Shown piece by piece: positions 33,001 through 42,950 of a stretch of 42,950 nt of DNA. The stretch comes from a virus (Duplodnaviria; Heunggongvirae; Uroviricota; Caudoviricetes). Where the stretch lies: the IMG/VR virus record IMGVR_UViG_2778261513_000004; one strand, written 5' to 3'. Numbering within the stretch: the stretch's first letter is position 1; each line of letters starts with the position of its first letter. Position numbers: made by a program.

Positions 33001-36000
33001 CTGCTGACAAATGCATGGTGTCAGCCAGGTAATCAGCTATGTACAGTTGCATGTATGGTAATGCGGCCATAATTGCCCCGTATGATGCTGCCCGGTGACT
33101 TAGAATAAGCACAAACAGCATGAAAACTTTTGCTTAATGAACAATGACAGAATCGTCGGAAGACCCACCGCCGCTGAAATGCGCTTTCCGGTAAACGGCC
33201 TGTACAGCATCATCATGTGCATCAATTGCCGTATTCAGCGCTTCCTGAGCCGCCAGTAATGCGCGACGTTCCAGGGTGTCAAAAACGCTGAGGCGGTGTC
33301 GCAGTTCGCGCGGAAGAATTGCCAGGATTGCTGGAATCAGCTTCTGGATTTTTTCCCTTTGCGCCTTTGTTTCACCTTTTAACCAGCGGTGATAGATGTT
33401 TTGCTGATTGTTCCAGTCCTTGCCTGGCGCCAGGGCTAATTCACTCTCCCCCTGGCGCAAATATTCTTCAGTAATTGCGTTGGCAACCCACGCCTGACCT
33501 TTTTCGGCAGCCAGAGCTAACAACACTGATTCAATGTGCTCATGCCTGATTTTCATGAATACCCTTACCCGCCCGCTTTGCCTTACGATATTTGTCATAG
33601 ATATTTGAGTCGTACTGAAGCTCCCCGCCAGATGCCTCTTGCAGACGCATCGCGCGGCCTTCAGGAACCAGTTCCCCCCATTGAGAAACAGCAGATGGAT
33701 CAACGCCAGCAGCTTTCGCCACTTTGGCTTTCGTGCCGTAATAATTAATTACGTCTGATTTAAACATTGCACCTCCAATATTGAGTTTTCTCAATGTTAA
33801 TCACTCAAGGAATCTCAAGTCAAGGGTTATTAAGATATCTAAATATGAACGAGAAAACTTTAGGTCAACGAATTAGAGAAAGACGCAAGCAGGTAGGCTT
33901 AAGTCAAAGTGGTTTAAGCAAAGCTGCTGGCGTTTCTGGCTCATCAATTTCATTATGGGAAAGTGACCATACAGCCCCGCGCGGGCAAAATTTGCATAGA
34001 CTCGCCGAGGTATTACAATGCTCACCGACTTGGATACTGTTCGGTGATGAGGATAAAACTCCGGATGCCCCAGTTTCACTCAATAGCCCCTTAGACTTAT
34101 CGGAAGATGAACTGGAGATGTTGCGACTGTATCGCGCACTTCCAAAATCCGAACAACAAGCACAAATCAGTGAACTCAGCGCTCGAGTTGAGAATTTTAA
34201 TCGCCTATTTACTGAGCTATTAGAAGCTCGCAAGCGTAACAAACATCAATAATCACCCCATCACAAATTTTTAAAGCCTTACATTTCAATGTATTGGCTT
34301 TATCTTGAGTCAAATATTGAGTTTTCTCATCAAAAACACTTGACCAAAAACAATGAGAAAACTAAATTACATCCCATCAAAACACCGCACGGTGTTCTCA
34401 GCAAACAGTTCCGCCACCCGGCGTTAAGGGGATACGAAGATGATCGCAGATGAAAAGCAGGGACTGGTGTTAAAAATAGATACCAGCCCCCTGAGACATC
34501 AGATTGAGAAGTTATACAAACTACTTGTTCCTGCGGTTTTTAACTGTCCGGATGATTTTATTGATTGTTTTATTAAAGTGTTCACTGAAATCAGAATCTT
34601 TGATTTCCGCAAAACAATCACCGCAGATAAAACGATCATTGTCAGAGCCAGAGTGCTCGTCGATCTCAATGTAGCGAGATCGGCAATGAGGACAGCGAAA
34701 TTTAATATCCATAATTAATATCCTTACAGCAAATTACCATTTGTAAGGATATCACCTCACCTGATGTGGTTAAAAGCAGGTCGTAGGCTCCACGATACGG
34801 AGCAACTATGAAGCCAATTCCCCCAGCGTTAAGGGAAAATGAGGTCAACATGGATACTATCGATCTTAGCAACAACGAATCCCTGGTGTGTGGCGTGTTC
34901 CCCAACCAGGATGGAACGTTCACCGCCATGACGTATACCAAAAGCAAAACGTTTAAAACCGAAGTTGGCGCGCGTCGCTGGTTGGAGAAGTACACAGTAA
35001 GCTAACGATTAAAACGTCTGCTCCTACTGTTCCAGAATAACTTCATAAAGTGGGAGTATTTTTCGGTGACGAGATAATAAGAACAGTTTGCGCCATCACT
35101 CTGATGTTGAATGATGCCCTTCCGTTCTAATTTTTTCATAACCGGGTTACGGAAAGGAGAAGTGATAATAAGATTTCCTGTTTTAAGGAAATCTTTAAAT
35201 ACAGCGATTTCTTTCTCAGATAAACGAAGCAATACTCGTTGCTCTGGTAGCAATGAATAATGTTTTTGAATATGTGCTCGCAATCTTGAGAAGGAAATGG
35301 CAACCACGAAAGAAAAGGCAAAAACTATAATCTGAAAGAGCCAGGTTATTTCAGTATAAGCATTAAATACGACAGCAAACTCTTTCGGTATCAGCCAGAG
35401 AGTGAGGCCAAAAATGATAATCGTGTACATAAGTCTTTCGATGTGGCTCTTTAGCAAAAAGTTTCAACAATGGAGTAAATACATCCAACATTTCAATAAC
35501 TCTCGACTGTAAGGGTATTGAAATGTTAACACAAGCTCTCGCTGTAGGGGTATAGCCGAGACCACCGAAGCCCGGAGGTGGTGAAATAAAACCGGGCACA
35601 ACACGAAGGCGCATTTCCGATATCCATAAAGAGTCGGTCTTGTCTGTTAAATATAAATGGTGGGAGTGCGCCTCCGGTTGTGAATAACGACATTGCTGTG
35701 TGTAGTCTTTGGCGGCATCGGTTTTTTCTTGAAGTTCGACTGATGTCCGCCCTTTTTAAAGTGAATTTTGTGATGCGGTGAATGCGGCTAAGCGCACGCG
35801 GAACAGTTAAAAAACTCTATATTAGTTTGGGGGGGTATTTGTATCCGGTGTTAATTGTTAACTGGTTAACATCACCTGGAGGCACCAGGCACCGCATCAA
35901 CAAAGTTCATTTGAAAAAATGGAGATGATTATGATTGCTCATCACTTCGGAACTGATGAAATACCACGTCAGTGTGTAACCCCTGGCGATTATGTTCTTC

Positions 36001-42000: not shown

Positions 42001-42950
42001 CAGAGTTAACAACAAACACAATGAAGAAAACGAAATCACAATTAAAAACACTCAGAATAATAATTTGTGAAAGTACCCCGATATCATATATTCGTTATAG
42101 CGATATCTTAAACTACCGGAATGAACTGCTGCATGGAGAAACGCTTTACCTGGATAATCCAAGATCCAACAAAAAAGGAAGAACCGTGCGCACAGTTGAT
42201 AACTATATCGCCCTGCTCTGTTCGCTGTTACGTTTTGCGTATCAGTCGGGATTTATATCAACCAAACCATTTGAAGGAGTAAAAAAATTACAGCGAAACA
42301 GAATAAAGCCTGACCCGTTATCTAAAACAGAATTCAATGCATTAATGGAAAGTGAAAAAGGACAGAGCCAAAACTTGTGGAAATTTGCCGTTTACTCCGG
42401 GCTTCGTCACGGGGAACTGGCAGCTCTTGCGTGGGAGGATGTGGATTTCGAGAAGGGAATTGTGAATGTCAGAAGAAACCTGACGATACTTGATATGTTC
42501 GGTCCCCCAAAAACAAATGCCGGGATCCGGACGGTAACATTACTACAGCCAGCTCTTGAAGCACTGAAGGAGCAATACAAACTGACCGGGCATCATCGCA
42601 AAAGCGAAATCACTTTTTATCATCGGGAGTACGGCAGAACCGAAAAGCAAAAACTGCATTTTGTTTTCATGCCCAGGATGTGTAACGGAAAACAGAAACC
42701 TTATTACTCGGTAAGCAGTTTGGGTGCGAGATGGAATGCAGCAGTAAAACGTGCTGGTATTCGCCGCCGTAATCCGTACCATACGCGACATACTTTTGCC
42801 TGCTGGCTGTTGACGGCAGGAGCGAACCCGGCATTTATAGCCAGCCAGATGGGGCATGAAACTGCGCAGATGGTGTATGAAATTTACGGTATGTGGATTG
42901 ATGACATGAACGACGAACAGGTAGCCATGTTGAATGCGCGGTTATCGTAG

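Follow-up and report, generated by a model that had tools for sequence, protein, structure and literature searches.

Positions 34440–42950 of the IMG/VR virus record IMGVR_UViG_2778261513_000004, a caudoviricete sequence of 42,950 nucleotides that is referred to over its full length as the window, very probably represent the early-left (pL-type) operon and integration module of a Rac-family lambdoid prophage of the LT-II lineage, integrated at ttcA and working in the manner proposed below. Within this arm, sequence comparison shows that the RecE nuclease domain and RecT have been exchanged for a Gifsy-1/HK225-type homologue, which is fused to the Rac-type N-terminal ~600 residues of RecE. Open reading frames (ORFs) were listed over positions 33000–42950, and genome comparisons were made by megablast of window stretches against 5,426 complete Escherichia coli genomes. 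The arm is matched over its full length at 99.8–99.9% identity in four complete E. coli chromosomes, whose PGAP annotation consists of exactly the gene set read here. In strain 0-4, the near-identical genome inspected, intR is followed by ttcA, dbpA and zntB, which is where Rac is attached in K-12. The window itself ends at the intR stop codon, so that its own attachment site is not seen.

Membership of the Rac family is supported by the integration genes, the insertion site and the gene order. The tyrosine integrase IntR (41715–42950, + strand) is 99% identical to K-12 IntR over 411 of 411 residues and the excisionase XisR (41498–41713, + strand) is 100% identical to its K-12 counterpart. K-12 Rac shares the ttcA site with strain 0-4, and the attP of phage Rac-SA53 also lies in ttcA. 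Gene order and orientation are common to the window and K-12 Rac from intR through xisR, rcbA, ralR/RalA, recT, recE, racC, ydaE, kilR and sieB to ydaF, at high identity except in the 3' part of recE and in recT, and conservation extends to the RalA small RNA (sRNA) and the KilS region. Judged on these alignments, the likeness of the arm to Rac is one of homology and not of chance. A first-pass annotation of the window had read its gene order as mirroring Rac and had recognised an excisionase and a 411-residue integrase; every gene it listed lies where it was placed and in K-12 order, and the last two are the XisR and IntR of Rac. Nine of the proteins align with K-12 Rac at 89–100% identity and YdaE at 66%, whereas the likeness fails for the RecE nuclease domain (29%) and for RecT, which has no BLASTP similarity to the K-12 protein.

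The immunity region also differs from that of the K-12 element. The RacR/YdaS arrangement is missing, Cro is of the P22_Cro type, no similarity to RacR was found for the window repressor, and the position of ydaG is taken by an unrelated ORF. As the repressor is unrelated to RacR, the phage should be heteroimmune to K-12 Rac. Heteroimmunity of this kind is usual for lambdoid mosaics. Further differences are that sieB is frameshifted in the window and that head, tail, lysis and toxin genes lost from K-12 Rac are kept in the window prophage.

The RecE/RecT cassette

The window RecE is 1040 residues long compared with 866 in K-12, and its two parts differ in their relationships. The N-terminal ~605 codons (36774–38590, + strand) form a Rac-type backbone comprising the Exonuc_VIII domain (PF06630, E 2e-66) and an acidic linker with a net charge of -27 over residues 400–600. 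Some 595 of these N-terminal residues are K-12-like: as read from the alignment, residues 230–595 are ~95% identical, while residues ~110–230 form a diverged patch that resembles HK225 RecE. The C-terminal part (38590–39896, + strand) encodes a PD-(D/E)XK nuclease domain of Gifsy-1/HK225 type that matches DUF3799 (PF12684, E 3e-13). Its 29% identity to K-12 RecE over 133 residues does not support orthology, and it carries a ~165-residue helical insertion relative to K-12. Identity is 51% to HK225 RecE and 52% to Salmonella proteins named 'Gifsy-1 prophage RecE'. Residues D912, D925 and K927 align with D748, D759 and K761 of K-12 RecE and are invariant in ten homologues, and the protein as a whole retains both an Exonuc_VIII region and a PD-(D/E)XK domain with the D...D-x-K signature. 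Since this catalytic triad is intact, activity of the chimaeric RecE is most likely. An AlphaFold model of the nuclease domain (mean predicted local distance difference test, pLDDT, 69.7) resembles RecE itself (3H4R, E 1.3e-7) more than any other PDB fold, with Cas4, MGME1 and AddB-type PD-(D/E)XK nucleases next in rank. A helical structure is predicted for the insertion at RecE residues ~700–885 (38870–39430), in which 'I(K/D)(K/E)(H/Y)NA(S/T)LP' helix motifs are repeated; these motifs are also found in HK225 RecE.

Directly 3' of the nuclease gene, and beginning 11 nucleotides past its stop codon, lies a gene for a 350-residue single-strand annealing protein (39908–40960, + strand) that belongs to the RecT family by its match to Pfam RecT (PF03837, E 4e-43 over residues 30–209). 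BLASTP found no similarity to K-12 RecT (E 0.44), so the two cannot be called orthologues, and a PDB sequence search returned no match for the protein. It is 48% identical to the RecT of HK225 and mEp237, and 97% identical to that of one deposited phage record. The left junction of the foreign segment, as located by DNA alignment and by sliding identity, lies at 38585–38595, at about RecE residue 605 and just 5' of the conserved start of the nuclease domain, 'YFEPGRYE...NEVYH'. The right junction falls at 40965–40975, just past the recT stop codon, where the sequence becomes like that of K-12 Rac again at a hairpin that both lineages retain (TGGCGGTGTAG..CACCGCCA; 40970–40991, + strand). The cassette so delimited is ~2.4 kb in size (≈38590–40970). 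When 38560–40960 was used as query it was present in 193 of the 5,426 complete genomes, coverage being 80% or more in 159, and it carries the annotation recE/RecT among the matches listed.

The closest relatives of this cassette are the modules of Gifsy-1, HK225 and mEp237. The nuclease domain shares 51–52% identity with them over ~430 residues, including the helical insertion with its repeated 'YNA(S/T)LP' motifs, RecT shares 48% over its full length, including a C-terminal extension, and in each case the annealase gene follows directly 3' of the nuclease gene with no Gam/Abc-type gene. The N-terminal ~600 residues of the window RecE are in contrast Rac-type, with 32–35% identity to HK225 where they can be aligned, and the combination of a Rac-type N-terminus with an HK225-type nuclease makes RecE an inter-lineage chimaera. 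The depositor of HK225 notes that its pair is similar to Gifsy-1 RecE and Gifsy-2 RecT. Lambdoid phages shuffle their Rec modules, and the Gifsy-1 class (class B) combines a nuclease and an annealase with no anti-RecBCD function (PMC12315714). Five Chi sites (GCTGGTGG) are found at 11896–20383 in the window where shuffling predicts 0.97, all on the - strand, which is the sense strand of the late genes; such an excess would be in keeping with a phage that leaves RecBCD uninhibited.

The first-pass annotation was thus right to call a RecE/RecT-type pair, although the pair is a Gifsy-1/HK225-type cassette and not that of K-12 Rac. Partner specificity is established for RecE/RecT-type pairs, and the joint exchange of nuclease domain and annealase fits it. 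Annotation pipelines label both alleles 'recE' and 'RecT' although this nuclease domain and annealase are non-orthologous to the recombineering pair of K-12. As a natural splice, the chimaera also implies that the poorly understood N-terminal ~600 residues of RecE are able to function, or at any rate to persist, alongside a foreign nuclease and annealase.

Relatives of the arm and its proposed working

The configuration of the arm is already known from Rac-SA53 and from LT-II Rac-like prophages. Rac-SA53 (KU052037) carries kilR, ydaE, racC, a 1048-residue recE, recT, ralR, ydaC, xis and intR, and its arm is 93.7% identical to that of the window over the aligned part. Its RecE has the same Gifsy-type nuclease, with 95.8% identity over the C-terminal 448 residues, and its RecT is of the same type. 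The two differ in their immunity regions, which in Rac-SA53 is of dicA/dicC type, and between dicA and kilR Rac-SA53 has two small hypothetical ORFs and no annotated sieB. The arm is therefore an annotated and widespread Rac-family module whose long-RecE variant is already represented in GenBank (Rac-SA53) and in 193 complete genomes. A Rac-type arm at 92% DNA identity, with a RecT at 97% protein identity, is also present in PP818812.1 (Actinobacillus phage vB_Apl-pPE4), a record assigned to Actinobacillus pleuropneumoniae; this suggests a misattributed host or an induced E. coli prophage.

The toxin genes link the window to the LT-II lineage. LT-II A and B subunit genes at 18533–19670 (- strand) match PF01375 (E 5e-117) and PF06453 (LT-IIB, E 1e-41), and a pertussis-toxin-like pair at 21238–22495 (- strand) encodes an ADP-ribosyltransferase and an S2/S3-like B subunit; both sets lie in DNA of low G+C content. 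The structural half of the window is 98.7–99.3% identical to Rac-site prophages of strains that include 0-4, Ceylon31 and NADC1036. The genes for the LT-II and pertussis-like toxins of type II enterotoxigenic E. coli lie in full-sized Rac-like prophages (Jobling, PMC5917428), and the presence of both toxins on the same element makes the window prophage a member of this group.

By homology with lambda and Rac, a working scheme can be proposed for the arm. In the lysogen it would be silenced by the repressor that is unrelated to RacR. Upon induction, rightward (+ strand) transcription would pass through kilR, blocking cell division via FtsZ, and through ydaE and racC before reaching recE and recT. 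RecE would then act as a 5'-3' double-stranded DNA exonuclease with RecT as its single-strand annealing partner, and together they may drive recombination-dependent replication and concatemer formation with no RecBCD inhibitor. The next gene, ralR/lar, could either alleviate type I restriction and enhance modification or encode a DNase toxin held in check by RalA, and would be followed by rcbA. Transcription of xis and int, which come last, would provide for prophage excision.

RalR, the PARIS-like gene pair and alternative readings

The Cys4 zinc-ribbon protein RalR (ralR/lar, 41023–41217, + strand) is 89% identical to K-12 RalR with its Cys4 ribbon kept, and matches both Pfam Lar_restr_allev (PF14354, E 9e-15) and phrog_599, 'Lar-like restriction alleviation'; the Lar/RalR-like gene of the first-pass annotation is confirmed. 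The protein is basic (isoelectric point 9.5, net charge +7). In 1995 King and Murray reportedly described Lar as combining restriction alleviation with enhancement of modification. By residue count from the alignment with K-12, K52 is conserved. This residue is required for the toxicity of RalR in K-12, where the protein acts as a non-specific DNase toxin and RalA controls it by means of a 16-nucleotide complementarity (PMC4041452). As expected of a type I toxin-antitoxin partner, a full-length RalA (41216–41394, - strand; Rfam RF02694, 197 bits against a gathering score of 170) is encoded 3' of ralR, within rcbA and on the strand opposite to it. The documented complementarity differs from that in K-12. 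There, the ralR site AAGTGAAAAAGAAGCA and the RalA region AGGTAAAAAAGAAGCA match at 14 of 16 positions, 11 of them contiguous, in agreement with PMC4041452, whereas the window ralR site at 41145–41160, AAGTGAAAAAGCTGCC, matches at 10 of 16 with 6 contiguous. Three substitutions in ralR account for the lost pairing and RalA itself is conserved. No alternative RalA–ralR match of at least 13 of 16 was found in the window, and predicted energies of whole-molecule RalA–ralR duplexes fall inside the shuffle distribution. An inverted-repeat search for the RalA site gave nothing relevant, because on DNA the pairing takes the form of a direct repeat. The mutated site is common to strain 0-4 (99.9% identical), while Rac-SA53 keeps a site of K-12 type.

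Outside the arm, the adjacent genes at 25918–28029 encode an AriB-like DUF4435/Toprim protein (25918–26820, - strand; PADLOC AriB, E 4e-9; Pfam DUF4435, E 1e-8) and an AriA-like ABC ATPase (26827–28029, - strand; PADLOC AriA, E 3.5e-41; Pfam AAA_21/AAA_15). With both PADLOC profiles matched by neighbouring genes, the earlier proposal of a PARIS-like system on the same prophage is upheld. As in PARIS of E. coli B185, a two-gene cassette of ABC ATPase and DUF4435/Toprim protein occupies a variable slot of a prophage. The differences are that AriA has 400 residues here against 464, that the cassette is on a lambdoid prophage and not on a P2/P4 element, and that sequence similarity is limited: the best PDB sequence match of the AriA-like protein is B185 AriA (8UX9, E 4e-13), confined to residues 322–389, and the AriB-like protein has no match in the same search, which does not place the pair close to B185. 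At such a distance from the B185 system the trigger of the pair cannot be inferred. The cassette (25700–28300) was found in only one other complete E. coli genome, Ecol_AZ159, at 97.1% identity, where it lies within a hotspot of a P2-like prophage, flanked by genes for the tail sheath and for tail-fibre assembly; hotspots of two unrelated types of phage therefore carry it. It is in no LT-II sister prophage examined. In the NADC1036 sister, the slot that corresponds to ~25100–28800 of the window, between hokD and the gene 5' of DUF977, is filled by SIR2 and AbiH, and in other relatives DUF2326, a restriction endonuclease or an nSTAND1 NTPase are among the features under matches to the slot region. 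The slot is probably a lambdoid defence hotspot, and a PARIS-like cassette in a lambdoid LT-II prophage adds to the cases in which defence cassettes have moved between hotspots of the P2 type and lambdoid ones.

Several points weigh against the assignment of the arm to a working early-left operon and integration module. Operon structure and promoter position are deduced by analogy, and a promoter scan of the arm gave hits at chance level (15 against 15.1 expected) with no pL assigned. At its mean pLDDT the nuclease-domain model is of no more than moderate quality, with the first 68 residues below 50. RalR has two differing published functions, restriction alleviation and DNase toxicity, between which sequence cannot decide. 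Finally, with sieB frameshifted and distal tail genes outside the window, the phage may be non-viable. The superinfection exclusion gene sieB (35002–35491, - strand), aligned at the DNA level with K-12 and strain 0-4, is ~97% identical to K-12 with a +1 insertion: one extra base at ~35442, at codon ~17, which is common to strain 0-4 and flagged 'frameshifted' by PGAP. An N-terminally truncated ORF of 151 residues starting from a TTG at 35457 still matches Pfam SieB (E 4e-29), such that a truncated product from this internal start is possible. The lineage of the window seems to be losing superinfection exclusion B. At its other end, the window begins 152 nucleotides past the stop codon of a 112-residue tail gene adjoining the tape-measure gene; in the 98.7% identical sister prophage of strain 0-4 the tail genes L, K, I and J and the fibre gene come next, which here lie outside the window. 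This raises the question as to whether the arm, in the manner of K-12 Rac, is a cryptic remnant undergoing decay, with genes kept for the benefit of the host, such as a toxin-antitoxin pair, Kil or recombination. Beyond the sieB frameshift and the truncation of the window at its tail end, such a remnant could account for an rcbA that is 7 codons short, for the degraded RalA pairing site in ralR, and for the strain 0-4 sister, in which tail K and fibre are pseudogenes and IS1 is present. However, the terminase, portal, capsid, tail tube and tape measure ORFs are intact in the window and of the same sizes as the annotated sister genes, and the ORFs of int, xis, recE and recT are of full length. 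Rac-SA53 was moreover deposited as a complete phage genome, Jobling terms such prophages full-sized (PMC5917428), and sieB is established to be dispensable for phage growth in lambda and P22. On balance we regard a cryptic remnant as a real possibility but a rather unlikely one. Inactivating lesions were what the first-pass annotation considered damaging to its picture of an apparently complete phage; at least one is present, in sieB, whereas the large structural ORFs inside the window are intact, and the window, which stops short of the distal tail genes, does not bear out completeness.

A second group of alternatives concerns RalR. It may be that ralR and RalA no longer form a type I toxin-antitoxin pair of K-12 type and that RalR is a phage Lar made only from the early-left transcript. 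The fall in pairing from 14 of 16 positions (11 contiguous) to 10 of 16 (6 contiguous Watson–Crick pairs) while RalA remains conserved at 197 bits would agree with this, but the K-12-type site of Rac-SA53 implies that the change is recent and maybe neutral, other pairing registers or indirect control are possible, and the toxicity residue K52 is retained, leaving a loss of RalA control unlikely. A further proposal, suggested by the first-pass annotation, is that the Lar/RalR anti-restriction protein triggers the co-resident PARIS-like pair and that the prophage must have solved the resulting problem of self-compatibility. PARIS was defined by its response to the anti-restriction protein Ocr and also restricts lambda via an unknown trigger (PMC9122126), and an AriA/AriB-like pair and a Lar-family gene do occur here on one element. 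Yet each of the triggers that have been reported, Ocr, Ptr1 and Ptr2, is a small protein of strongly acidic character, for which positively charged pores of AriA are the proposed binding site (PMC11464382), whereas RalR is basic; when the charge and isoelectric point of every small protein of the arm were compared with the published properties of triggers, no small acidic protein was found in it. In addition, Lar is established to act on the type I enzyme and is no DNA mimic (King & Murray 1995, as cited in PMC4041452), and the window AriA matches B185 over ~70 residues only and AriB not at all. A weaker objection is that PARIS was assayed in MG1655 with no reported autotoxicity (PMC11464382), as this strain carries ralR, which is probably silent there. 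Lar as the trigger was rejected as unsupported and is extremely improbable, and the conflict between PARIS and anti-restriction within the prophage is not borne out. A phage tRNA acting as a T5-like suppressor of PARIS was also rejected, as ARAGORN finds no tRNA in the window. The converse idea, that the arm is shaped to stay invisible to its own OLD-family (PARIS-like) sensor, we consider improbable in the extreme too, if marginally less so. It draws on a RecE/RecT pair with no Gam-type inhibitor, on the Chi sites, on the lack of a small acidic DNA mimic and on a basic RalR, which, lacking the K-12 RalA pairing site, would be a phage-expressed Lar rather than half of a toxin-antitoxin pair. 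P2 Old, a related OLD-family enzyme, responds to the inhibition of RecBCD by lambda Gam (PMC12445682), and as the arm has no Gam-type gene an Old-like route of self-activation would also be absent. Were the arm shaped in this way, Lar-type anti-restriction would be one means of defeating type I restriction without tripping PARIS-type guards.

Remaining genes of the arm

The other genes of the arm are of Rac type to varying degrees. The FtsZ inhibitor gene kilR (35931–36152, + strand) encodes a protein 95% identical to K-12 KilR (phrog_294, E 4e-36) and is followed by genes for a YdaE-family zinc-binding protein (36146–36322, + strand; 66% to K-12 YdaE) and for RacC (36397–36672, + strand; 90%). 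Between recT and the integration genes, rcbA/ydaC (DUF1187; 41210–41398, + strand) is 97% identical to K-12 and encodes 62 residues as opposed to 69, an AGA to TGA change having introduced a stop 7 codons early. On the far side of sieB, ydaF (DUF1391; 34850–35005, + strand) encodes a protein 90% identical to K-12 YdaF (phrog_751, E 6e-34). The ORF in the position of K-12 ydaG (34440–34718, + strand; 92 residues) is a 'hypothetical protein' in sister genomes, for which neither a Pfam or PHROG family nor any similarity to YdaG was found. Antisense to it, a 62-residue zinc-ribbon ORF (CxxC...CxxC; 34521–34712, - strand) matches phrog_5602 (E 7e-5) and may be the real gene, in which case the annotation of the 92-residue ORF would be on the wrong strand.

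The intergenic region between sieB and kilR, inside which the kilS sRNA of K-12 lies, aligns with K-12 Rac at 92% mean column identity. By hand mapping from this alignment, a KilS-equivalent sRNA region was placed 5' of kilR at 35660–35757 (+ strand), and a DicF-like RNA match at 35697–35752 (+ strand; 44.9 bits, below the Rfam gathering score of 48) corresponds to its 3' part. An STnc100-like RNA match, also 5' of kilR, is located at 35764–35904 (+ strand) and scores 43.1 bits against a gathering score of 47.

Beyond the ydaG position, a YdaU-type replication protein of 425 residues (31844–33121, - strand) combines DUF1376 and DnaT domains with an inserted T5orf172/MUG113 domain at residues 125–192. 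This insertion we expect to be absent from the 285-residue K-12 YdaU.

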